Assembly: GCA_963714975.1 (NCBI GenBank)
Contig: CAVQQD010000002.1
Span: 672,001 to 736,000, forward strand
DNA from: an uncultured Gammaproteobacteria bacterium
GTDB lineage: Bacteria > Pseudomonadota > Gammaproteobacteria > JAURND01
Reading direction: 5' to 3'
DNA: 64,000 nt
The notes beneath the pieces were generated by a model. It saw only the letters and a program-made list of their open reading frames with translations. It did not search any database and was not told the DNA's origin. Shown piece by piece: positions 17,496-57,728 of this stretch. The stretch's first letter is position 1; each line of letters starts with the position of its first letter. The translations under genes were made by a program, and so were the position numbers.

Positions 17496-18106
17496 CCTGA
17501 ATACCGTGAAAACTTTAAACTAATCCAGATCGTCTGAAAGGTTGTAATGCCTGACAGCACTACTAAGGCAATTAATAAATATCCTGCCCATAGAGAATGA
17601 TAAAGGCTGCTGATCGGGATAAGCAGCATAAGCAGGTACATTTCACCTCGGTTTAAAATACGCCATATGATAGTTTCATCTGGATCGATTACAGCTTTGC
17701 GATGATTAGCATAGGCCACTTCAAACGATGGCATAATAGCAAAGAACATCGCAAGACAAATCCATTGTGATAATGGTAGCCATGATGTGGTGATAGGTAA
17801 CCAGAAGTAGCTAAAAAGCAGCATGAAATCAATAAATCGATCTAGACTCCCGTCTAAAAATGCTCCCCGGTAAGAAGCACAGTTTAAATGTCTAGCCAAA
17901 GCCCCATCCACTAAATCCAATATGCCAGCTAGCAGGAAAAAACTGCAGCCTAGCCATATCGCATGAGTAATGATGGCGATAAGACCAATTAAGGCAATGG
18001 GTACTGTGCTCCAAGTGTAGAAGTCTGGCGTGAAGGGCAGTTTTGAGAATATTTGGCCAATTTTGCGTGAAATGGCGGCCCAGGTTTTAGATTTCTCTTT
18101 TATCAC
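17489..18106 (-). CDS. CDP-alcohol phosphatidyltransferase family protein
   Basis: DLVDGALAR...GAFLDGSLD matches the D-x2-DG-x2-AR-x7-G-x3-D-x3-D signature; GTG 18106 overlaps the upstream TGA. Confidence 0.88.
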   Translation of the reverse strand: MIKEKSKTWAAISRKIGQIFSKLPFTPDFYTWSTVPIALIGLIAIITHAIWLGCSFFLLAGILDLVDGALARHLNCASYRGAFLDGSLDRFIDFMLLFSYFWLPITTSWLPLSQWICLAMFFAIMPSFEVAYANHRKAVIDPDETIIWRILNRGEMYLLMLLIPISSLYHSLWAGYLLIALVVLSGITTFQTIWISLKFSRYSGQ

Positions 18107-20235
18107 GATATTATACAAATCCCTCTAGCACATTGAATGAATGCAGCTGTCCCCTGGGGAAGTTCAAATTTGTCGTGGTGATTCCTTTGAAAAACCAATG
18201 ATCCTCCACTGTTGATGGCGATGCCATCAAAGTAAATTGGGTCATTAACGGTGATATTTGCGCCATTCCCTCCGACAACGAGCTGCGGGGTATTGGGCCC
18301 AATGACGATAGAGTGGTCGATATATAAGCTTGTTAGTTCGTCTACTGCAAATCCCACGGCGTTATTCTCGAAGATCGAATTACCGACATAGATGCTGAAA
18401 TTATGCGAGGATAAATTATCTGCAATTAAACCGATGCCATTGTTGCTTACATTAGAATTAATGACCGTGAGTTTCGATCGGCCAGTATCATTCAAAGCTA
18501 AAATTCCCGAAGAAATATTATTGGTAATGCTGGAGTTGGTAATAGATAGCCAGGAATTACCTAGTAGATTAAGGTTACTGTAACCTAAACCAAAATTATT
18601 AATGCTGCTGCGGTCCATCACAAAGGTCATAGTACCGGTGGTATTGGTTAATGCCACTCCCGAGCCAATCCCCAGGCCAGATAACTGCGTGCGAAGCAAG
18701 CGAATATTCATATCACCCGAGGAAAGATTTTCTGCGTTAATACCATTCGAATTACCGAACAAAGATGAGTCTTGAATCGTCACATTCAGTTGCGAATCGT
18801 CAAAGAAATTTTGGTCCAGAATTCCTATGCCAAGGTTAAAATTAGTAATGAATGAATGGTCAATCAACACTTCGACATTATCATCGATAGGATTGCTAAT
18901 TAGTATGCCAGTGCTATCAACCAGAGGACCGGCACCTTCTAAGATTAAGTTGCTTAAGCGTGTCGTCCCTTCAGTGGGAACGATGAGGGCATTATTGATA
19001 CCACTCGTATTATTTTGAACTAGATTTAAAGCAGAAAATTGATTATTCCCAAATAAATAGGCGCCATCATTGGCAAAGAAAATAACGGGTAAATTATTGT
19101 CAATGATAGTGGCAGGTTTTTTGTAGCTGTAGTCACGTCCGCTAACATTGTCGTAGGTAAAAAATAGAGCGGGTAATCCATTGCTAGGATCACCATAAAT
19201 TCCAGATTGAATAAAGAAATTACGGTTATTTAAATCATTCGCATTGTCAATATTAGTTTGATTTAAGGCGCAGCGATTTTCATAGGTGCAGTTGCCGTCT
19301 GCAACACCATTGGGCGAGAAAAAGGAAATATTAGAGAGCAATACTCCTTCTTTATCAGTTAGTTTTTTACTTTTTTCGATAGGTTGTGCCGTGGGTGAAT
19401 TACCGGCAATAGACACAAGATTACGTTGAATAGGGTCGACTAGCCGCTGGGTTAAATCGTGGGGCTTGTAGGAATAGTGGCTATTGCGGCCACCTAAGTA
19501 AAGCGTCACTCCACCCTTAAAAACATTATGCGCTTCGGAATCGTAGGTTTCACTGAGGTCAACACTGAGGTAAGAGGTGAGTGGGATGCGCAGCCTGGCA
19601 GATGCTCCAGTAAACGAATCGGCATCTTTAGGACTAAAGTGGTAGCCGCCTAGATAGAGTTCCGGATTATTTTTTAACGGGAGTCGAAACCCCACTTGAG
19701 CATCGCCACCAAATCCTACTGAATTAAAAGTATCTACGAGGCGGTCGTAGGCTTCATGATTAGTAAATCTCAGATATTTATATTCGTCTGTAGATTCAGC
19801 AAAACAAGTACCGGTGGTTGCTCGCCTCGGCCCGACTGGCACATAAAGATTTGCGCTGAAATCGATCCTATCGCCTAGTCGTTCGATTCCGGGGCTAATA
19901 AACCAAAAACCGTGAGTATCGCTGCGGTGATTGTAATCAGCAAAGACATACGCGCCCAGGATACCTGCTTGGGAGTGAAGTTGGCGAAAACCCAATCCTA
20001 GGCTGCCAGTATAATCTTGAGAATTGTGATATTGGGTTTGTGGATCCAGAAAAATAAAGCGATTGGTTTGGCCAAAAACAGGAGCTAGTATATCACCATA
20101 CCCGGTAGTGCCACTGCCGGTAAAACCACTGATGGAAACGCCTGGTGTGAGCGGAAAAGGAGTGTTATCAGAAGCAAATCCATTATGAGCTAGAAGGCAG
20201 CTACTTAACACCAGCAATTTTACCGATGACCTCAT
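18103..20235 (-). CDS. inverse autotransporter-like outer membrane protein with a beta-helix passenger
   Basis: Signal peptide; N-terminal barrel motifs GLGFRQ, LGAYVFADY, SPGIERLG...FSANLYVP, RLVDPIQRN; Asn/Gly/Ile-rich repeats (I.NS.I.NN..GI) in the C-half. Confidence 0.75.
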   Translation of the reverse strand: MRSSVKLLVLSSCLLAHNGFASDNTPFPLTPGVSISGFTGSGTTGYGDILAPVFGQTNRFIFLDPQTQYHNSQDYTGSLGLGFRQLHSQAGILGAYVFADYNHRSDTHGFWFISPGIERLGDRIDFSANLYVPVGPRRATTGTCFAESTDEYKYLRFTNHEAYDRLVDTFNSVGFGGDAQVGFRLPLKNNPELYLGGYHFSPKDADSFTGASARLRIPLTSYLSVDLSETYDSEAHNVFKGGVTLYLGGRNSHYSYKPHDLTQRLVDPIQRNLVSIAGNSPTAQPIEKSKKLTDKEGVLLSNISFFSPNGVADGNCTYENRCALNQTNIDNANDLNNRNFFIQSGIYGDPSNGLPALFFTYDNVSGRDYSYKKPATIIDNNLPVIFFANDGAYLFGNNQFSALNLVQNNTSGINNALIVPTEGTTRLSNLILEGAGPLVDSTGILISNPIDDNVEVLIDHSFITNFNLGIGILDQNFFDDSQLNVTIQDSSLFGNSNGINAENLSSGDMNIRLLRTQLSGLGIGSGVALTNTTGTMTFVMDRSSINNFGLGYSNLNLLGNSWLSITNSSITNNISSGILALNDTGRSKLTVINSNVSNNGIGLIADNLSSHNFSIYVGNSIFENNAVGFAVDELTSLYIDHSIVIGPNTPQLVVGGNGANITVNDPIYFDGIAINSGGSLVFQRNHHDKFELPQGTAAFIQCARGICIIS

Positions 20236-20811: not shown

Positions 20812-20850
20812 GTAAGGTCGCAAGTGTATGAGAGGGGAGAGGGTTTTTTT

Positions 20851-21032
20851 AACCTAGATTCGGCAGTAGAAACCGTAGCGAGAGGGATTAAGACGTTGAA
20901 GATCTTGATTATTTTTAAATTTTTTTCTTGAAGGCGTACTCACCCGTACGGTGAAAGAAAAAAATATAAAAATAAGCGAGAGATTCAATGTATTAAGCCC
21001 TCACAGTAGGTTTCTACTGCCGAATCTAGGTT
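20851..21032. mobile_element. MITE-like palindromic element with 24-bp terminal inverted repeats
   Basis: AACCTAGATTCGGCAGTAGAAACC (20851-20874) and its exact reverse complement (21009-21032); the interior is an imperfect palindrome. Confidence 0.8.
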
Positions 21033-21051
21033 TAACAGTGTGGAGAAGGTA

Positions 21052-22761
21052 ATGACACAACTAACAGGCGCTCAAGCGATTATGCAATCTTTACTCGGTG
21101 AAGGCGTCGACATTTTATTTGGTTATCCTGGAGGGGCGATTATGCCAACCTACGATGCCTTATATGATGTTCAGTCGCAATTGCGGCATATACTGGTCCG
21201 ACACGAACAAGGCGCCGTTCATGCGGCTGAGGGTTATGCCAGAGCCTGTGGTAAACCTGGGGTTTGCTTGGTCACTTCAGGCCCAGGGGCCACTAATCTT
21301 ATTACCGGCATTGCTGATGCCATGCTAGATTCTGTCCCCGTGGTATGTATTACTGGCCAAGTGAGCAGTGTTTATTTAGGAACCGATGCCTTTCAAGAAG
21401 CCGATATTATTGGAATTTCCCTTCCTGTCACCAAGTGGAATTATCAAATTACCTGCGCTGACGAAATCCCAGTGGCAATTGCGAAAGCATTTTATATTGC
21501 CCGCTCGGGTCGCCCGGGCCCGGTTTTACTCGATATGACCAAAGATGCCCAATTAGGTTTGCTGGATTTTGCTTATAAACCCTATGTAAGCCCGAAAAAA
21601 ACCCTTGACGCTACCACGAATGCTAGTCAGTGGCAGGAAAAAATAACTCATGCGATGCAATTAATTAATCAGGCAACTAAGCCATTATTATTGGTAGGGC
21701 ATGGGGTGTTATTATCTGGAGCCATGGAGGAATTAACGCAATTTGCCGAAAAAGCCAATATTCCAGTGGCTTGTACCTTGTTAGGCTTATCAGCATTTCC
21801 TACAGATCATCCTTTATACGTTGGCATGTTAGGTATGCATGGAAATTATGGTCCTAATTTATTGACTAATCAGGCCGATGTTATTATTGCAGTGGGGATG
21901 CGCTTTGATGACCGAGTGACTGGAAATTTAAATTCTTATGCCAAACAAGCTAAAATCATTCATATTGATATTGACCCGGCTGAAATTAATAAAAATGTTT
22001 CGGTCGATGTTGCCTTGTTAGCGGATGCCAAGCAGGCATTGCAAGCACTACTGCATCATGTCGACGCAACTCGTTGTCCACAACAACATGAACGGTGGAT
22101 TGGTGAGTTTAAATCTTGTTATGATCAAGAATATCAGCAGGTCATTACCCATGAAATTTCCCCCAAAGGGCCGCAAATTAAGATGGCCGCTGTGATCCAT
22201 GAATTGGCGAGAAAAACTAAGGGTGAATCTGTGCTCGTGACCGATGTTGGGCAGCATCAAATGATAGCGGCACGTTATTATCAGTTTAGAAGGACTAATG
22301 CGCATATCACTTCAGGGGGTTTAGGCACGATGGGATTTGCTTTGCCCGCAGCAATTGGGGCTAAATTGGCAAATATGTCCCAGCAGGTCATTGCAATCAT
22401 CGGGGATGGTGGTTTCCAAATGAATATCCAAGAGTTAGGCGTGATTGCTCAGGAAAGCCTGCCGGTAAAGATAATTATATTAAACAACAATCACTTGGGC
22501 ATGGTTCGACAGTGGCAGGAGTTATTTTTTGAACAACGCTATTCCTTTGTGCACTTAAAAAATCCTGATTTCATTAAAATTACTGAGGGATATGGCATTG
22601 AAGCGCATCGTATCTCTGATATTACTGATTTATCGGCAGGTTTAGATCGATTATTAGCGGCTGAAGGCCCTTATTTATTGGAAGTTGTCGTCGAAAAAGA
22701 GGAAAATATGTTCCCCATGATTCCAGCGGGAACCGGGGTAGGTGAAATTCGTTTATCATAG
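21052..22761 (+). CDS. ilvB: acetolactate synthase large subunit
   Basis: FGYPGGAIMP, RHEQGA, TSGPGATN, GMRFDDRVTG, TDVGQHQM, GDGGFQMN, LGMVRQWQE. Confidence 0.95.
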   Translation: MTQLTGAQAIMQSLLGEGVDILFGYPGGAIMPTYDALYDVQSQLRHILVRHEQGAVHAAEGYARACGKPGVCLVTSGPGATNLITGIADAMLDSVPVVCITGQVSSVYLGTDAFQEADIIGISLPVTKWNYQITCADEIPVAIAKAFYIARSGRPGPVLLDMTKDAQLGLLDFAYKPYVSPKKTLDATTNASQWQEKITHAMQLINQATKPLLLVGHGVLLSGAMEELTQFAEKANIPVACTLLGLSAFPTDHPLYVGMLGMHGNYGPNLLTNQADVIIAVGMRFDDRVTGNLNSYAKQAKIIHIDIDPAEINKNVSVDVALLADAKQALQALLHHVDATRCPQQHERWIGEFKSCYDQEYQQVITHEISPKGPQIKMAAVIHELARKTKGESVLVTDVGQHQMIAARYYQFRRTNAHITSGGLGTMGFALPAAIGAKLANMSQQVIAIIGDGGFQMNIQELGVIAQESLPVKIIILNNNHLGMVRQWQELFFEQRYSFVHLKNPDFIKITEGYGIEAHRISDITDLSAGLDRLLAAEGPYLLEVVVEKEENMFPMIPAGTGVGEIRLS

Positions 22762-22769
22762 GAACTTTT

Positions 22770-23027
22770 ATGCAATATATTTATGCCATTTCAATCATCA
22801 CTGAGAATGCCTTGCGCGTTTTGCAGCGTATGGCCGGCATTTTTGCCCGTCATCGGGTCAATATTGAACAAATGCATGTTTTTGAAACCAGCAATAAAGG
22901 GATCTCATATTTCAATGTGGTCATCCACAGTGATGATAAAACGACAACTAGAGTCATTATGCAATTACAAAGAATTTTTGAATTCGTCGAGGTCAAAATT
23001 AATAGTAAAATTGCTATTAAGCAATAA
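22770..23027 (+). CDS. ilvN: acetolactate synthase small (ACT) subunit
   Basis: EN..VLQR.AGIFAR..VNIE ACT pattern; lies between ilvB and ilvC. Confidence 0.85.
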   Translation: MQYIYAISIITENALRVLQRMAGIFARHRVNIEQMHVFETSNKGISYFNVVIHSDDKTTTRVIMQLQRIFEFVEVKINSKIAIKQ

Positions 23028-24220: not shown

Positions 24221-24230
24221 TTACTCACGC

Positions 24231-24370
24231 CGTCGTCCTGGCATGGATGCGTAACGTCGTCCCTGCAGGATGCAGAGATCCAGTTCATCAGGATGTGAAA
24301 GATTCGCCTCCTGCGCCGTGGATCCCGGCATTCATGCCGGGACGACGTTACGCCTCCTGCAGAGACGACG
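24231..24370. repeat. CGTC-type palindromic element
   Basis: CGTCGTCC...GGACGACG arms; homologous (inverted) to 5096-5189. The ORF-track N-terminal extension of the next gene is this repeat. Confidence 0.78.
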
Positions 24371-24390
24371 TGCTTAAAATGGCGATGATT

Positions 24391-26178
24391 ATGTACCAAC
24401 TTATTGATTTTATAACTAAAAAACCAGTTCAAGCTCGAGGTTTTGTATTTACTGGAGAACAATCTCCATGGGAAGTTTCCATGGAGATGAAAGCCGTCGC
24501 GGTCAAAATAAATTTGGATTATTTTAAAACTTCTCCTCCCGGGCTTTCTAAGTATTTGCCCCTGATGCCCATTAAAGCCATAGCAAAATTTATCTCGTTA
24601 AATGAAGCCGCTACTCCTCTCATTAAAAGTAAAGTTTTAGGAGCGAAATTAAACCTAGATTTGTATTTTAAAGTAGAAGGGAAAAATCCCACCGGTTCTT
24701 TTAAAGATCGTGGTTCTGCAGTGGATATTTCCATTGCTCGTGAGTTAGGAGCGGAGGGCATTGTCCTTGCTTCGACGGGTAATATGGCAGCTTCCTGTGC
24801 TTGTTATGCCGCAGCGGCAAAAATGCCGTGTTTTATCTTAATCCCTGAAGGAGTGCCGGTAGGTAAGTTGGCGCAAGTGCTTGCTTTTGGTGGCCATGTA
24901 ATTCAGGTGAAGGGCAATTACAACGATGCGGCTCAGTTAGCGCAGAGGATCGCCGAAGAAATGGGGTTTTATTTAGCGGGCGATTATGCTTATCGAGTGG
25001 AAGGTCAAAAAACTGCCGCTTTTGAAGTCATTGATCAACTATTTTTTCAGGTACCCGATTGGGTGGTGGTGCCCATGGGTTGTGGCACTAATATTACCGC
25101 CTATGCTAAGGGGTTTAAAGATTACAAAGATTTGGGCTTAATAGAAAAACAGCCCCGATTACTGGGGATTCAGGCCGAAGGGGCGGCAGCCATTGTGCAG
25201 AGTTTTCAGGCGGGGAGAACCACCATTGAAGCGTTTTCAAGCGCTAACACTTTGGCGTCTGCCATTGCTGTGCCCAATCCTCTAGATGGAATTAAAGCTT
25301 TGGATGCGATTTATTCTTCGGAAGGCTCAGCAATGTCGGTGACTGATCAAGAAATATTGGAGGCACAATATTTGCTTTCTACCGAAGAAGGCTTGTTTGT
25401 AGAAAGCGCTTCTGCTACTACAGTGGCTGCTTTACTAAAGGCCGCAAGAAATGGCCAGGGAATTGAAGGGCGGGTGGTGTGTGTGTTAACCGGTGATGGT
25501 TTGAAAGATGCCAATGTAATCCTGCGAGCTGCGGTTAAACCGGTGACCATTTATCCAGAGATAGATGAATTTTTACTGCTCTACAAAAATAACTTTTTTA
25601 ATAATAAAAATATGATTTTTGTTGAGAAGAACCAGGTTCTTTTTGCTGCTGACCCCAGCTTAGAGCAAATTGAAGAGCAAACAATGTCTTTGCTCGGCGC
25701 GCATTATTCGCAAGAGTATTTGCTGAAGATTAAGGATATTTTGAGCAAAATTTTGCAGAAAGGAAAGAAAATCACTGTATCGGATTTCCAAGACAGTGTC
25801 CAAGATGCTTTGGGCACTCCCCACGTTTCAGGCACCGCAGTATTTTCAGTCATTGATTTTATGGTCACCACTGGGAAAGATCGGATGCCCAAGGCAACAG
25901 TCACGGTTAAAATCGGTGGACAAGAAAAAACTGCTGCCTCTGAGGGTGTTGGCCCTGTGGATGCTGTGATTAAGTCATTGATCCAAGCTTGTGGAGAAAA
26001 GATTGACTTTACCTTGACTGATTATAAGGTGGAAATTCGTAGTCAAGGGGTTGATGCAGTTGTTTATGTCGAATTGAAATTGATGAAAGGAAACAATTTT
26101 TCTTTGGGACGAGGGGTGTCACCTGATATTATCCAAGCTTCGATTGAGGCTTTTGAAGCAGCTTATAATGGCTTTTAA
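24391..26178 (+). CDS. threonine synthase-like PLP enzyme fused to a C-terminal LeuA (2-isopropylmalate synthase) regulatory domain
   Basis: KVEGKNPTGSFKDRG, ASTGNMAAS, EGQKT, VPMGCGTN, LTGDGLKD; C-terminus ATV.V...G.GPVDA...LTDYKV...G.DA...G.G.S.DIIQAS.EA. Start is one of ATG 24379, 24385 or 24391. Confidence 0.88.
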   Translation: MYQLIDFITKKPVQARGFVFTGEQSPWEVSMEMKAVAVKINLDYFKTSPPGLSKYLPLMPIKAIAKFISLNEAATPLIKSKVLGAKLNLDLYFKVEGKNPTGSFKDRGSAVDISIARELGAEGIVLASTGNMAASCACYAAAAKMPCFILIPEGVPVGKLAQVLAFGGHVIQVKGNYNDAAQLAQRIAEEMGFYLAGDYAYRVEGQKTAAFEVIDQLFFQVPDWVVVPMGCGTNITAYAKGFKDYKDLGLIEKQPRLLGIQAEGAAAIVQSFQAGRTTIEAFSSANTLASAIAVPNPLDGIKALDAIYSSEGSAMSVTDQEILEAQYLLSTEEGLFVESASATTVAALLKAARNGQGIEGRVVCVLTGDGLKDANVILRAAVKPVTIYPEIDEFLLLYKNNFFNNKNMIFVEKNQVLFAADPSLEQIEEQTMSLLGAHYSQEYLLKIKDILSKILQKGKKITVSDFQDSVQDALGTPHVSGTAVFSVIDFMVTTGKDRMPKATVTVKIGGQEKTAASEGVGPVDAVIKSLIQACGEKIDFTLTDYKVEIRSQGVDAVVYVELKLMKGNNFSLGRGVSPDIIQASIEAFEAAYNGF

Positions 26179-26315: not shown

Positions 26316-27995
26316 ATGTCACAACTTAATAAATACAGCGCCAAACTAACTCAGACACCTTCGCAAGGGGCTTCACAGGCAATGCTATATGCGACTGGTC
26401 TCACTGAGGATGATTTACGCAAAGCGCAAGTAGGTATTGCGAGCATGTGGTATGAAGGCAATCCCTGCAATATGCATCTGTTAGATTTGGCTCAACAGGT
26501 CAAGGTAGGGGTGAGGGAAGCTGATCTGGTGGGGATGCGATTTAATACCATTGGCGTCAGTGATGGTATTTCCATGGGAACAGAAGGGATGCGTTATTCT
26601 TTGCCATCACGCGATTTAATTGCCGATTCCATTGAGACCGCCATGGGGGCGCATTGGTACGATGCGCTGATCGCCATCCCAGGTTGTGATAAAAATATGC
26701 CAGGCTGCGTGATAGCGATGGCGCGTTTAAACCGTCCTAGCTTAATGATTTATGGTGGTACTATCAGAGCTGGGCACATTGACCATAACACCATCGATGT
26801 GGTGACCGCATTTCAATGTTATGGTGAATTTCTTAGTGGCAAAATAGACGATCAGCAGCGCCGGGCTATTATAAAACATGCCTGCCCAGGGGCAGGGGCT
26901 TGTGGTGGGATGTTTACTGCCAATACTATGGCCTGTGCTATTGAGGCTTTGGGTATGAGCTTACCCTATAGTTCTTCTACCCCCGCAACCGATCCAGGGA
27001 AACTGCAAGAGTGTTTGCGCGCAGGTCAGGCTATCCGATATTTACTGGAAAAAGACCTTAAGCCCAAAGATATTATGACGCGGCGCGCCTTTGAAAATGC
27101 CATGGTTTTGATTGTCATATTAGGGGGATCTACCAATGGAATCCTACATTTACTGGCGATGGCACATGCCGCAGGAGTTCCTCTGGAATTGAGTGATTTT
27201 CAAAAAGTCAGTGATCGAACCCCGTTATTAGCTGATTTTAGGCCCAGCGGAAAATTTCTCATGGAGGATTTACAACGTTATGGTGGGACGCCAGCCGTGT
27301 TAAAAATGCTATTAAAGGCGGGTCGCATCGATGGGGATTGTTTAACGGTAACCGGAAAAACTTTGGCAGAAAATCTTGCTAATGTGCCAGATTTAGCCGT
27401 GGATCAACCTATTGTTCATTCTTTTGCGAATCCATTAAAGCCGACCGGGCATTTACAAATATTAAAGGGCAATCTGGCTCCTGATGGTTCTGTGGCTAAG
27501 ATTACCGGCAAAGAGGGTTTGTATTTTAGTGGTCCTGCTCGGGTATTTGACTCAGAGCAGGCTATGGTTGAAGCATTTGAACAACAGAAAATTGCCAAGG
27601 GCGATGTGATTGTAATTCGTTATGCTGGACCCAAGGGCGGTCCAGGGATGCCGGAGATGCTAAAGCCCACTTCGATGTTGATGGGAGCTGGCTGGGGAAA
27701 AGATGTCGCATTGATTACCGATGGGCGCTTTTCAGGCGGGTCACATGGCTTTATCGTGGGTCATATTTCTCCCGAAGCCCAAGTCGGGGGTCCGATTGCT
27801 TTAATTAAGGATGGGGATCGTATTACTATTGATGTAGAGCAAAATTCTATCCAAGTGGAGTTAACGCCTGAGGAATTGGCGGAACGTTATAAATTATGGA
27901 AAATGCCTCCTTTCAAGGTAAACCAAGGCCAATTATTTAAGTACATTAAAAATGTCTCATCGGCTAGTTTAGGATGTATTACAGATGGACAGTAG
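26316..27995 (+). CDS. ilvD: dihydroxy-acid dehydratase
   Basis: [58 protein letters not shown]. Confidence 0.96.
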
Positions 27996-28067: not shown

Positions 28068-29639
28068 ATGCTAAAGCGAGATATTTCAACCACCAATGTA
28101 TTAATTGCAGCCGCTGGCGGGATGATTGGCTCTGGCTGGTTATTTAGCCCTTTTATTAGCGCACAGATGGCTGGGAGCAATGCATTAATCTGCTGGGTTA
28201 TAGCCACCATTTTCATGGTATTTGTTGCCCTGCCATTGTGTGAATTGGGTGCTATGCTGCCCATTTCCGGGGGTATGGCCAATTATCCGACTTTTACCCA
28301 TGGTAAAGAGGTGGGCTTTTTATTTGCTTGGGCTTCTTGGCTATCTTATGTGGTCATGACCCCGATTGAAATCCAAGCTATTTTGCAATATGGCAGTCAT
28401 TTCTTGCCTTGGCTCGTGATTAAAGGGGAAACCGCATTTACCTTATCTGGCTGGGGGTATGGGGTTGCTATCCTCGTGATGTTATTTGTAGTGTTGTTAA
28501 ACACCTTTGGTATTAAATTACTGGCTGAATGTAATAAATACGCTAGCATTATAAAGTTTGCTGTTCCTATTATTGCTGTTATTGCCTTGCTGCACACCTC
28601 GCATTCGTTTGCCAATATCTCTATCAATCTGCATACCAAAGCAAGCTGGATGGGTATTTTTTCCGCCTTATCGACAGGGGGAGTCATTTTTGCTTTTACT
28701 GGATTTCAAAATGGTTTGATGTTGGCGGGCGAAGTACGCAATCCACAAAGAAATATTCCTATTGCCATTTTAGGTGCTGTTTTCATTGGGTTTGTCTTGT
28801 ATTTCCTGCTGCAACTTAGTTTCCTGGCCGCCATCCCAAAGTCGCTACTTAACCATGGTTGGCATCAGCTGGCTTTCGTGGGAGATAGTGGGCCTTTAGT
28901 GGGTTTAACTTTGTTGCTTGGATTGGGGCTAGTGGCCACATTACTCATGATTGATGCCTCTTTTTCGCCTTTTGGCACTACCTTAGTGTATACGGCAGCC
29001 ACCTCGCGTATTTTATACGGCATGGCACTTAACGAACACTTACCTAAGTTCCTGCTTAAGGTTAATCGTTATCGTATCCCTTATATTACTTTGTATATCA
29101 ATTTTGTCGTGGGGATCTTATCGTTTTTGCCTTTTCCAGGATGGCAAAAAATGGTGGCATTTCTTTCCTCGGCCAGTATTCTGTCCTATGGTATTGGGCC
29201 TATTTGCTTGTTAGCATTTCGTAAGTTGCAGCCTGACAGGGCTCGGCCATTTCAATTAAGCGCAGCTGGCCCGTTGTCCTATGTGGGGTTTTATGTGTGT
29301 AATTTAATGCTGTATTGGTGTGGTTTTGACATTATTTGGAAGCTTTTTCTTGCCATTTTGGTGGGTTTACTAATTAATCGAATTTATCAACGTAAAAACC
29401 TGCTTAGCTTCAGTCGCAGCTTAACGTGGTTTTTTAGCTATCTGGCCTGTTTATTGGGACTTTCTTATTTAGGTTCTTTTGGGGGAATTAACCTGCTGTC
29501 ATTTCCTATCGATGTCTTACTCATTTTGCCATTGAGTGTGTTTATGCTCTATCTTTCCCAGCGCTGCCTGGTGACCGAGGAAGATGGATCACCCCTCATC
29601 CGCCTTCGGCACCTTCTCCCACAAGGGGAGGAGGAATAA
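28068..29639 (+). CDS. APC family amino-acid permease
   Basis: GGMIGSGWLF, ELGAMLPISGG, F.FTGF...LAGEVRNPQRNIP; many TM segments. Confidence 0.92.
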   Translation: MLKRDISTTNVLIAAAGGMIGSGWLFSPFISAQMAGSNALICWVIATIFMVFVALPLCELGAMLPISGGMANYPTFTHGKEVGFLFAWASWLSYVVMTPIEIQAILQYGSHFLPWLVIKGETAFTLSGWGYGVAILVMLFVVLLNTFGIKLLAECNKYASIIKFAVPIIAVIALLHTSHSFANISINLHTKASWMGIFSALSTGGVIFAFTGFQNGLMLAGEVRNPQRNIPIAILGAVFIGFVLYFLLQLSFLAAIPKSLLNHGWHQLAFVGDSGPLVGLTLLLGLGLVATLLMIDASFSPFGTTLVYTAATSRILYGMALNEHLPKFLLKVNRYRIPYITLYINFVVGILSFLPFPGWQKMVAFLSSASILSYGIGPICLLAFRKLQPDRARPFQLSAAGPLSYVGFYVCNLMLYWCGFDIIWKLFLAILVGLLINRIYQRKNLLSFSRSLTWFFSYLACLLGLSYLGSFGGINLLSFPIDVLLILPLSVFMLYLSQRCLVTEEDGSPLIRLRHLLPQGEEE

Positions 29640-55491: not shown

Positions 55492-56763
55492 TCAGATAGC
55501 TACTATATTCCGCAACTCATGTAAAGTTTTCCCGACTTCTAAAACATGGGTTGGCTTTTTAAGTAATTCTTGCAATTGCGGCGGGATGGGTATGGATGCC
55601 TGTATTAAAGGCTCAATGACTGTATCAAACTTCACCGGATCTGCTGTTGCTACAATGATCCAAGGTTCTGCAGAAAGTTTTTCTCTCACAAAACAAGCGG
55701 TAGCGGTGTGTGGGCAGACAATTGTGTTATGTTCCTCGTAGATGTGCTTAATAGTAGTGGCAATTTCTTCATCGCTGACACTAAAAGCCTGCACATTATT
55801 TTTAAAAGACTCAAAAGTGTTAAAGAAATATTGCAGACGCTCAAAATTACTGGGATTACCCACATCCATGGCATTCGCTAAAGTGCTAATACTTTGACGC
55901 GGTTGGTATTCCCCTGACTGTAAATAATCCGGGATAACTTTATTAGCATTGGTTGCTAACACAATTTCGCGAATTGGAAAACCCAGCATTTTTGCACAAT
56001 AGCCAGCGGTAGCATTTCCTAAATTGCCTGTTGGGACAATATAACCCGGGGCAAGCTGATGTTGCTGATAAAATTGCAGACTACTAAAGGCATAATAGGT
56101 AATTTGAGGCAAGAGTCGCCCAATATTGATGCTGTTGGCACTGCTTAAGCTGATATGCTGTTGCCACCATGGATCCCTAAAAGCTGCTTTCACCAAGGCT
56201 TGGCAATCATCAAAAGTCCCATCAACTGCTAATGCCAATACATTTTGATCCCAGCAAGTTATTTGATGCTCTTGTCGGGTTGCAATCTGGCCTTTGGGAA
56301 ATAAAATAATCACATTGACATTGGATTTTAAATAAAAAGCACTGGCAACCGCGGAACCAGTATCTCCTGAGGTTGCTACCATGATGGTGGTTTTTTGCCC
56401 AGTAGCAATGTGATTAATACACTCTGCTAAAAAACGCGCACCAAAATCTTTGAACGATAAGGTGGGTCCATGGAAAAGCTCAAGCATATAGGTGTTATGA
56501 TTTAATGAATGAAGAGGCACTGGAAAGGAAAAAGCATTAGCACACATTGCTGATAAATTTTCTGAAAGTGCATCTCCTTGAAAAAATTCTTGCAATACTT
56601 TTTCGGCAAAAGCAGGATAGCTAGGTATATCAGTAAAAGAGTTAAAATCAATTTTAGGAATGGACTCAGGAACAAACAGTCCCCCATCTTCAGCCAATCC
56701 ACAACGGATTGCTGCCGATAAAGATTTATGAATATTTTTGTCTCGTGTGCTAATGAAATTCAT
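55492..56763 (-). CDS. thrC: threonine synthase (gammaproteobacterial type)
   Basis: GLA.DGGLFVP, LELFHGPTLSFKDFGARF, ATSGDTGSAV, SANSINIGRL.PQ, VPTGNLGN, NAMDVGNPSNFER. Confidence 0.95.
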   Translation of the reverse strand: MNFISTRDKNIHKSLSAAIRCGLAEDGGLFVPESIPKIDFNSFTDIPSYPAFAEKVLQEFFQGDALSENLSAMCANAFSFPVPLHSLNHNTYMLELFHGPTLSFKDFGARFLAECINHIATGQKTTIMVATSGDTGSAVASAFYLKSNVNVIILFPKGQIATRQEHQITCWDQNVLALAVDGTFDDCQALVKAAFRDPWWQQHISLSSANSINIGRLLPQITYYAFSSLQFYQQHQLAPGYIVPTGNLGNATAGYCAKMLGFPIREIVLATNANKVIPDYLQSGEYQPRQSISTLANAMDVGNPSNFERLQYFFNTFESFKNNVQAFSVSDEEIATTIKHIYEEHNTIVCPHTATACFVREKLSAEPWIIVATADPVKFDTVIEPLIQASIPIPPQLQELLKKPTHVLEVGKTLHELRNIVAI

Positions 56764-57728
56764 AAAGCCTCTTTGACTTCAATCACCCGTGCGGGATGTT
56801 TGCTAATAGGCGAAATCCAAGTATCAGTCTTTATGCCTTGCTCATGTAATGGTTCCTGCATGGCATTGCTAATCATGACTGCTTGATGTTTATTTTCCGC
56901 GAAAGCAAAGATACTGGGTCCTGAGCCAGAAAAGGATACCCCCAGCGCTCCCGCTTGCAAGGCTGCAGCTTTAATTTGATAAAAACCCGGCACAAATTGT
57001 ACTCGCTGCGGTTCAATGAGTAGATCATCTAAAATTTTAGGCCATAATGTGCGATCATTTTTGTAGAGTGAGCTGATGAACGCTGCCAGATTAGCCGATT
57101 GCCTAACGTAGTCTTTTAAAGGCAATTGCTCTTTTAAGATGCTCCTGGCCTGATTGGTAGATACATGCAAATGAGGATGAACTAACACGCAATATACGTC
57201 TGGAATGGGTAACTGAATCACTGCAATGGGATCTGTGCATTGAATTAAAGTTAGACCTCCAAAAATGCAAGGCACTACATTATCTGCATGTTTTTGTCCG
57301 CTGGCCACCTCTTCACCTAATAGGGCATATTGCGCTAATTCATCCAGTGATAAGGCTGGATTTAGAAAAGCATTAAAAGCTGTTAGAGCTGCTACTGCTG
57401 ATGCTGCTGATCCCCCCATCCCGGAACTTAACGGAATACCTTTTTCAATGCGAATGGAAAAGCCTAGGTCTAATTGCATGGCTTGACATAATTTTTGCAC
57501 CACGACAGAGGCGGTATTTTTTTCGACGGCTAAGGGTAATTGCTCATCAGAGTTAACAAACCCAGCGGATTCAATCACAACCTTATTATCGTCGCGACGT
57601 GTTAAGGTGACGTGATCACCAACTGCTTCTAATGCAAAGCCGAGAATGTCAAAGCCCACGGCAACATTAGCGCAAGAGGCAGGGGCAAAAGCTTTTACCG
57701 AATGAATGTTTGAATTTATGGTCGACAT
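56760..57728 (-). CDS. thrB: homoserine kinase
   Basis: APAS.ANV.VGFD.LG, KGIPLSSGMGGSAAS, HADNV.P, SGSGPS. Confidence 0.95.
   Translation of the reverse strand: MSTINSNIHSVKAFAPASCANVAVGFDILGFALEAVGDHVTLTRRDDNKVVIESAGFVNSDEQLPLAVEKNTASVVVQKLCQAMQLDLGFSIRIEKGIPLSSGMGGSAASAVAALTAFNAFLNPALSLDELAQYALLGEEVASGQKHADNVVPCIFGGLTLIQCTDPIAVIQLPIPDVYCVLVHPHLHVSTNQARSILKEQLPLKDYVRQSANLAAFISSLYKNDRTLWPKILDDLLIEPQRVQFVPGFYQIKAAALQAGALGVSFSGSGPSIFAFAENKHQAVMISNAMQEPLHEQGIKTDTWISPISKHPARVIEVKEAL

Follow-up and report, generated by a model that had tools for sequence, protein, structure and literature searches.

A threonine-synthase-like enzyme fused to a LeuA-type regulatory domain in ilv operons without IlvA, a candidate branched-chain-regulated threonine dehydratase

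Short-type threonine synthases (ThrC, EC 4.2.3.1) are pyridoxal 5′-phosphate (PLP) enzymes of fold type II, with solved structures from A. aeolicus (2ZSJ), B. subtilis (6CGQ/6NMX), M. tuberculosis (2D1F), and T. thermophilus (1UIM/1V7C). The regulated threonine dehydratase IlvA (EC 4.3.1.19; E. coli 1TDJ/9D2Q) shares this superfold and carries an amino-acid-sensing domain, the ACT-like Thr_dehydrat_C, behind its catalytic domain. Another sensor, LeuA_dimer, follows a helical linker and an HMGL-like triosephosphate isomerase (TIM) barrel in LeuA (M. tuberculosis 1SR9/3FIG) and in the citramalate synthase CimA (L. interrogans 3F6G/3F6H). 3FIG is leucine-bound, and the identity of 3F6G/3F6H and their isoleucine ligand were confirmed. 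Here, we analyzed a gene that joins a ThrC-derived catalytic domain to a LeuA-type module inside an ilv operon. It lies in a stretch of 64,000 nucleotides, called the window hereafter, from an uncultured Gammaproteobacteria bacterium (assembly GCA_963714975.1, contig CAVQQD010000002.1, positions 672,001 to 736,000). We are fairly confident that this gene supplies 2-oxobutanoate in place of IlvA. More specifically, its product is probably a ThrC-derived threonine dehydratase under feedback control by branched-chain amino acids. The parts of the gene are as follows.

24391..26178, + strand: fusion gene, 595 aa, made of a ThrC-derived PLP domain, a LeuA-type linker, and a LeuA_dimer regulatory domain
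24592..25494, + strand: PALP (fold-type II PLP) domain, residues 68-368, placed by Pfam, alignments, fold search, and motif tables; key residues are the PLP lysine K105 and the family-specific M132, G197-D198-Y199, and G230-C-G-T-N234
25672..25770, + strand: linker helices like LeuA subdomain II, residues about 428-460, placed by a TIGR00973 match, the structural model, and a fold match
25771..26169, + strand: LeuA_dimer allosteric domain, residues 461-593, with G519-x-G-P-V-D-A525 and S577-P-D-I-I-Q-A-S584

The preliminary description of this DNA had seen a short-type ThrC fold that continues in frame into a LeuA/CimA regulatory domain, and both halves of this claim were confirmed. The motifs NPTGSFKDRG, ASTGN, and EGQKT were found in the N-terminal part, where PALP scored 253.2 bits in Pfam (residues 116-416), and G.GPVDA, LTDYKV, and SPDIIQAS were found in the C-terminal part, where LeuA_dimer scored 95.8 bits against a cut-off of 24.9 (residues 509-641, model positions 2-128 of 131). 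These Pfam positions are numbered on a 643-aa form that begins at 24247 and equal the residue number in the 595-aa form plus 48. The whole fusion was modeled by AlphaFold2 from 54 family members, with a mean predicted local distance difference test (pLDDT) value of 86.9 and a predicted template modeling (pTM) score of 0.81. A fold search with the N-terminal 400 residues of the model gave target-normalized template modeling (TM) scores of 0.85-0.87 against six solved threonine synthases. Neither PF00585 (Thr_dehydrat_C) nor PF00682 (the HMGL-like TIM barrel) matched the fusion protein. Thus, the order of catalytic domain and C-terminal sensor is that of IlvA, but the sensor is LeuA_dimer in place of Thr_dehydrat_C, and this LeuA_dimer is joined to a PLP enzyme, not to the barrel found in LeuA and CimA. 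The catalytic domain is a distant relative of IlvA. Threonine ammonia-lyases gave phmmer E-values of 1e-13 to 1e-17 and 78-128 bits against cut-offs of 379-411, and the IlvA models were far below their cut-offs (127.9 vs. 378.75 and 78.2 vs. 411.3 bits; TIGR01124 / TIGR01127).

The active site was compared with five solved threonine synthases (2ZSJ, 6CGQ, 2D1F, 1UIM, and 1E5X), with Thermus numbering taken from the alignment (K105 corresponds to K61). The five enzymes have S-T-G-[ND]-T and N-S-x-N-x-x-R in common, and the four bacterial ones also have G-N-A-G-N. At the first site, the fusion reads S-T-G-N-M, so that M132 replaces Thermus T88. At the second site, it reads G-D-Y-(one-residue deletion)-A-Y-R, in which G197 and D198 replace N154 and S155. 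Furthermore, GNAGN is replaced by G-C-G-T-N. The GSFKDRG and EGQKT motifs are kept, as is R202, the equivalent of Thermus R160. We take T88, N154, and S155 to be the residues that hold the phosphate of O-phosphohomoserine. Among the homologues listed from our protein search, S[TS]GNM was present in 119 of 120 and GDY..R.EG in all 120, and the canonical STGNT and NS.NP occurred in none of the 120.

The preliminary description had also placed the fusion in the order ilvB-ilvN-ilvC-[fusion]-ilvD-permease, and the ORFs (open reading frames) together with the Pfam and NCBIfam matches bear this order out.

21040..22761, + strand: ilvB, acetolactate synthase large subunit; TIGR00118 734.7 bits vs. 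cut-off 538, three TPP_enzyme domains
22770..23027, + strand: ilvN-like small subunit, 85 aa, ACT domain alone; ACT_AHAS_ss 44.1 bits
23048..24220, + strand: ilvC, ketol-acid reductoisomerase; TIGR00465 325.2 bits vs. cut-off 226
26316..27995, + strand: ilvD, dihydroxy-acid dehydratase; TIGR00110 748.7 bits vs. cut-off 618
28068..29639, + strand: APC-family amino-acid permease; AA_permease_2 141.4 bits, specific NCBIfam models all far below cut-off

The claim that no threonine deaminase is present holds for the genome as well, in that Thr_dehydrat_C had no match in the window's genome, which is 93.75% complete. Its four PALP proteins are a CBS (cystathionine beta-synthase)/CysK-like enzyme, the fusion, TrpB, and ThrC.

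The same architecture was found in many genomes. A protein search over 5.8 billion sequences yielded 7999 scored candidates, and each of the 120 that were listed bears both PALP and LeuA_dimer (58-100% identity, 567-643 aa). A library clustered at 50% identity added 14 full-length fusion clusters (573-633 aa, 34-57% identical), and a contig scan located 17 full-length fusion loci in other genomes. The hosts of these loci are Francisellaceae, an uncultured Coxiella-labelled bin, other Gammaproteobacteria, Bdellovibrionales, a ‘delta proteobacterium’, Woesebacteria, and Peribacteria. One or more of ilvB, ilvN, ilvC, and ilvD stand beside the fusion in 15 of the 17 loci, mostly as ilvB-ilvN-(ilvC)-X-ilvD, the exceptions being L012 and L032, and the genomes G002, G005, and G090 have the same ilv arrangement around the fusion. 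In three further loci (L025, L026, and L030), relatives that are 60-65% identical and have no C-terminal domain fill the ilvB(N)C-X-ilvD slot. The search for the combined domain architecture and its surroundings, which had been suggested with the preliminary description, therefore returned a widespread family with a consistent setting. An assembly artefact or an accidental join to a leuA remnant is ruled out, since so many genomes share the architecture and since the C-terminal domain resembles the LeuA of the genome itself only remotely (24% identity over just 55 residues). A recent duplicate of the genome's thrC is likewise ruled out, since the fusion is 21% identical to the window's ThrC. 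The permease is not conserved beside the fusion elsewhere; one weak tblastn match was obtained among the other loci.

We next considered the distribution of IlvA across genomes that carry the gene. These carriers comprise 23 distinct genomes, 20 with the fusion and three in which the stand-alone form fills the ilv slot (G004 and G015 are one genome). Regulated IlvA was found in none of the 23, with neither TIGR01127 above cut-off nor Thr_dehydrat_C in any of them. In addition, a class sample was drawn of 121 genomes, one per family and at least 90% complete. In this sample, the IlvA regulatory domain was present in 73 genomes, ilvD in 81, and the fusion in three (G000, which is the window's genome; G090; and G104, identical to the genome of L016). 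When the comparison was confined to the 81 genomes with ilvD, the fusion occurred in 0 of 68 with the IlvA regulatory domain and in 3 of 13 without it (one-sided Fisher p = 0.0034). When G147 and G069, two genomes flagged as unpublished and both IlvA-positive, ilvD-positive, and fusion-negative, were left out, the counts were 0 of 66 vs. 3 of 13 (p = 0.0036). The fusion and regulated IlvA are thus mutually exclusive across these genomes, and the fusion stands beside ilvBNCD where regulated IlvA is missing, so that it appears to work like IlvA and not to be a member of its family. Of the two alternatives in the preliminary description, the second, a repurposed enzyme that would stand in for IlvA as the source of 2-oxobutanoate, is favored by this ilv placement, by the absence of IlvA, by the replaced active-site positions, and by a separate ThrC. 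The latter had been noted in the window as a canonical thrB-thrC pair at 55492-57728, and it is indeed present on the minus strand.

55492..56763, - strand: canonical long-type thrC, housekeeping threonine synthase; TIGR00260 278.7 bits
56760..57728, - strand: thrB, homoserine kinase; NF002288 347.4 bits vs. cut-off 194

The fusion is therefore not the genome's housekeeping threonine-forming step. Across the carriers, a separate canonical ThrC was found in 18 of 23. The remaining five (G004, G005, G014, G030, and G032) have no thrB above cut-off, and in three of them (G005, G014, and G030) homoserine dehydrogenase was not found either, although the fusion is kept. G005 is a single contig, 96% complete, with ilvB-ilvN-ilvC-fusion-ilvD intact; the assemblies of G014, G030, and G032 are of unstated completeness, so that the absences there are less certain, a reservation to be counted against our reading below. 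Because G005, G014, and G030 have no ThrC, homoserine kinase, or homoserine dehydrogenase, O-phosphohomoserine cannot be the substrate there. With no homoserine-derived substrate in genomes such as G005, imported threonine would be the simplest substrate.

We analyzed the C-terminal module for its relation to known amino-acid sensors. The preliminary description had likened the linker to LeuA subdomain II, and two lines of evidence agree with this. The bacterial LeuA model TIGR00973 matched residues about 428-593 (model positions 334-494, 79.5 bits), starting ~30 residues before the Pfam domain and so covering the linker, and a fold search with the C-terminal model against leucine-bound M. tuberculosis LeuA aligned 172-188 columns (E 1.6e-10). 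In the AlphaFold2 model, helices run over residues 424-435, 441-456, and 463-475 of this region. A PDB search with the C-terminal 195 residues alone matched nothing, and a profile was needed. A profile of 13 C-terminal pieces matched the L. interrogans citramalate synthase regulatory domain (3F6G/3F6H) at E 4.2e-7 and M. tuberculosis LeuA weakly (E 0.1). The separately modeled C-terminal piece (pLDDT 82.2) superposed on the isoleucine-bound L. interrogans domain with a target-normalized TM score of 0.76 and a root-mean-square deviation of 2.6 Å. The loop motif G.GP.DA was kept in 118 of the 120 homologues listed, which argues for a working ligand site. Sequence and fold do not discriminate between isoleucine, leucine, and valine as the ligand.

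As LeuA and CimA have it, the module is predicted to homodimerize through the G.GP.DA loop. The predicted homodimer of the C-terminal piece scored 0.60, as against 0.00 for the best of three controls; a score of 0.60 is reached by 20 of 30 solved one-chain pairs and by 1 of 23 solved single chains. At least 98% of the contacts agreed between runs, and the pLDDT of the partner was at least 80. The predicted interface takes in residues 519-524, the invariant G519-D524 loop, and residues 577-582 (S577-Q582). This pass may simply mirror the likeness to LeuA and CimA, because their regulatory dimers are solved. As a separate observation, a 4736-aa protein of the representative library, P0257, contains 46 separate stretches that match query residues about 506-572, in the LeuA_dimer part, which suggests a giant protein of repeated LeuA_dimer-like units.

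We infer substrate, product, effector, and direction of regulation as follows. L-threonine would bind on K105 as the external aldimine, its β-hydroxyl would be eliminated, and 2-aminocrotonate would be released and hydrolyze to 2-oxobutanoate and ammonia. The acetohydroxyacid synthase (AHAS) IlvBN, IlvC, and IlvD, encoded around the fusion, would then take 2-oxobutanoate on to isoleucine. Such a reaction would amount to the last half-reaction of ThrC, the addition of water to PLP-bound aminocrotonate, running backward from threonine, with the enamine then set free. A weak activity of this kind is documented for short-type threonine synthases: a preprint reports measurable threonine dehydratase activity of wild-type B. 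subtilis ThrC (bioRxiv 10.64898/2026.09.15.751699), and an article describes in vitro deamination of threonine by Microcystis ThrC and calls Thermus ThrC dual-function (PMC12172450). The branch found in ilv operons, part of a group named GDY-type below after its G-[DN]-[YF] signature, would have fixed the dehydratase activity through the rebuilt former phosphate pocket. As for regulation, LeuA_dimer would pair with that of a second subunit, a branched-chain amino acid would bind at or near the interface, and the paired module would relay this binding to the active site as feedback inhibition. Isoleucine is the effector favored by pathway logic, and leucine is possible too.

Several observations weigh against a threonine dehydratase, and they are gathered in this and the following paragraphs with the explanations that they would suit. 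The catalytic domain shares 40-43% identity with real short-type threonine synthases, its nearest NCBIfam models are those of threonine synthase, and TIGR00260 matches it above cut-off (238.2 vs. 167.1 bits). In addition, an unregulated TdcB-like dehydratase of ~330 aa is present in five of the 23 carriers (G002, G019, G027, G029, and G033). The first alternative in the preliminary description was a genuine threonine synthase under branched-chain control, which would supply threonine for isoleucine while another enzyme deaminates it. This identity and score would suit it, as would the common fold, the five carriers without another ThrC, and the database name, which wherever given is threonine synthase or thrC. 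However, the pathway would then be left without a dehydratase, as regulated IlvA is absent from all 23 carriers and the TdcB-like enzyme is confined to the five. A canonical ThrC is already present in most carriers and in four of five archaeal genomes with a GDY-type paralogue (G009-G013). Moreover, the carriers that have no other ThrC also have no thrB, and three have no hom, so that they cannot make the substrate and yet keep the fusion. The narrower ThrC equivalog models were all below cut-off for the fusion (e.g., PRK08197, 271 vs. 303), and the GDY-type proteins form a separate clade that scores 189-235 bits on TIGR00260 vs. ~336 for canonical short-type enzymes. We therefore regard a genuine threonine synthase as highly improbable.

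The second set of points concerns O-phosphohomoserine. The phosphate-holding roles of T88, N154, and S155 are presumed, and the retained PLP lysine and R202 mean that some anion binding or ThrC chemistry is possible. The T-to-M change alone is not diagnostic, since STGNM together with N-S occurs in ThrC-like genes of Aminicenantes beside hom. The fusion itself adjoins hom in G032 (Peribacteria), and one archaeal GDY-type gene adjoins a weak hom match; some lineages may therefore tie the clade to homoserine metabolism. These features would accord with an O-phosphohomoserine phospho-lyase, which would convert O-phosphohomoserine to 2-oxobutanoate, phosphate, and ammonia and so lead to isoleucine without free threonine as intermediate. 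For such an enzyme, the operon place and the complementarity with IlvA fit equally well, the ThrC scaffold is retained together with the lysine and the Arg160 equivalent, and a threonine branch that would supply the substrate exists in the window's genome and 17 other carriers. ThrC is reported to release 2-oxobutanoate as a by-product if the step assisted by phosphate fails, and a mammalian ThrC homologue reportedly breaks down O-phosphohomoserine to 2-oxobutanoate. Nevertheless, G005, G014, and G030 have no evident source of O-phosphohomoserine, although the operon of G005 is intact, and at the putative phosphate site, residues conserved in ThrC have given way to others, among them an acidic one. 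A phospho-lyase thus seems quite unlikely to us. In the Aminicenantes subfamily (L077, L080, and L088), STGNM is accompanied by a kept N-S...P.R motif and by SSGGH for GNAGN, near a homoserine dehydrogenase gene.

The wider clade gives further points against a dehydratase. For the tree, the query and its best 150 representatives (151 in all) were taken; eight were dropped for a length outside 300-700 aa and five for fewer than 260 aligned catalytic residues, which left 138 proteins (FastTree, midpoint root). All 39 GDY-type proteins fall into a single clade (support 0.988), which contains no other type. Within it, 15 fusions sit in a subclade of 23 whose other eight members have no C-terminal domain (support 0.556). 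The clade, 39 of the 138 nearest representative clusters, covers Proteobacteria, Bdellovibrionota, candidate-phyla bacteria, and many archaea, and its members are annotated as threonine synthase throughout. We annotated 13 of the 56 distant stand-alone loci (L033-L088), of which the three Aminicenantes loci proved not to be GDY-type; the 10 GDY-type ones had no ilv genes and no common theme. In a Woesearchaeota bin, moreover, the GDY-type gene is the sole ThrC-family gene. The ancestral activity of the clade is thus uncertain, and new activities have arisen from the ThrC family before, among them that of cysteate synthase, for which an NCBIfam model exists. Hence, the fusion could catalyze another reaction near branched-chain metabolism (another elimination, serine deamination, or β-replacement), with the LeuA domain as a module for dimerization or stability only. 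Against this stand the repeated tight placement between ilvC and ilvD and the absence of IlvA, which point to a single missing step, as well as the effector-loop motif in nearly all homologues listed, and we consider another reaction unlikely.

Cysteate synthase itself was considered because a pattern search drew many Methanosarcinales genes. It is a known neofunctionalized ThrC relative and, like the fusion, derives from the ThrC family and occurs as a paralogue beside canonical ThrC. It was ruled out, with the fusion at 84.1 bits against a TIGR03844 cut-off of 324.9 and in another genomic context, and no cysteate synthase was matched at E 1e-40 among the stand-alone GDY-type relatives. The archaeal stand-alone paralogues (L033-L076, G009-G013) belong to Methanosarcinales, Methanoperedens, Jordarchaeia, and DPANN, and their neighbors are unrelated genes. 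In addition, G014 has, besides the fusion, a second GDY-type gene without a LeuA domain (408-aa ORF, G014:C4:131517-132482). A bolder proposal, which we offer tentatively and with some doubt, is that the whole GDY clade is an unrecognized family of eliminating PLP enzymes and not of threonine synthases, one branch of which took up the LeuA sensor and so reinvented an allosteric threonine deaminase.

The last points against a threonine dehydratase come from possible other sources of 2-oxobutanoate in the window's genome and from the effector. The genome has a sole LeuA-family gene, which reaches none of the cut-offs for LeuA or CimA, and a citramalate synthase side activity is therefore possible. 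This gene heads leuA-leuC-leuD-leuB and is probably LeuA. A citramalate route that would make the fusion needless is accordingly disfavored, and the two HMGL-like genes of the genome are located away from the fusion. A CBS/cysteine-synthase-like gene followed by a gene of the cystathionine gamma-synthase/gamma-lyase family (G000:C2:801881-804016; L003 1480-3615) could be a reverse transsulfuration pair with 2-oxobutanoate as a by-product. Regarding the effector, the C-terminal profile is nearer to bacterial LeuA than to citramalate synthase, whose models gave 34.3 and 22 bits on the C-terminal piece, so leucine could be the effector. With these points taken together with the above, a threonine dehydratase under branched-chain feedback is still the reading that we favor.

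The start of the fusion gene and the remaining features of the window are described here. The whole ORF spans 24247-26178 (+), and a stop-free 595-aa reading begins at 24391. The latter is the likely start because the N-terminus MYQL... is conserved, being kept in an alignment of 18 homologues, and the stretch upstream is a repeat-filled spacer. The ATG at 24247 falls inside this spacer, and other in-frame ATGs upstream lie at 24379 and 24385. The spacer between ilvC and the fusion (24221-24390, 170 nt) gave 59 blastn matches genome-wide, most of them over spacer positions 35-127. Its REP-like (repetitive extragenic palindromic) repeat explains the 170-nt gap and the spurious in-frame ATG. The start of ilvC probably lies further downstream, because KARI_N begins only at residue 68; ilvC homologues align from about residue 37-42.

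24255..24347, no strand: REP-like palindromic repeat in the ilvC-fusion spacer, about 93 nt
20848..21035, no strand: MITE-like palindromic repeat, 188 nt, near-perfect, 4 nt upstream of the ilvB ORF, in the operon leader

The 188-nt repeat has inverted arms of 27 nt (96%) and 59 nt (78%). We call it MITE-like (miniature inverted-repeat transposable element) because 10 full-length copies with 96-100% identity were found in the genome, and no Rfam family matched it above the gathering score. No known RNA leader or attenuator was found upstream of ilvB, where the sole Rfam match was a spurious microRNA model on the palindromic repeat, and promoter and terminator scans gave no useful excess over shuffled background. 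IlvB is close to the AHAS II model (680 vs. 738 bits), and the 85-aa small subunit resembles the short IlvM/IlvN type. Upstream of the operon and divergent from it, a 710-aa ORF (18103-20235, -) has a weak match to an inverse-autotransporter beta-domain (31.7 bits).

The preliminary description did not recognize this architecture as characterized. A full-text literature search (supplementary files not covered) agrees, as none of the papers that it returned deals with a ThrC-LeuA_dimer fusion or with a ThrC-type enzyme in the place of IlvA; a search on ThrC-like enzymes returned only papers on mammalian THNSL and unrelated ones. A feedback-controlled PLP enzyme that forms 2-oxobutanoate is a known kind of enzyme, and what is new is its construction from a ThrC core and a LeuA sensor. 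If our reading is true, isoleucine synthesis in many bacteria (among them Francisellaceae, Legionellales and Coxiella relatives, Bdellovibrionota, Woesebacteria, and Peribacteria) would start with an enzyme annotated as threonine synthase, and pathway reconstructions would find no IlvA in these bacteria and might mistake them for isoleucine auxotrophs. It would also be a natural case in which a side activity of ThrC, the dehydration of threonine, was raised to the main activity, and one in which an allosteric domain moved between unrelated catalytic folds, which would bear on the evolution of feedback control and on the engineering of amino-acid sensors. Should the more tentative proposal for the whole GDY clade hold, the committed step of isoleucine synthesis would have been solved twice, independently, and the LeuA domain would be a portable allosteric module that can control an unrelated catalytic fold.

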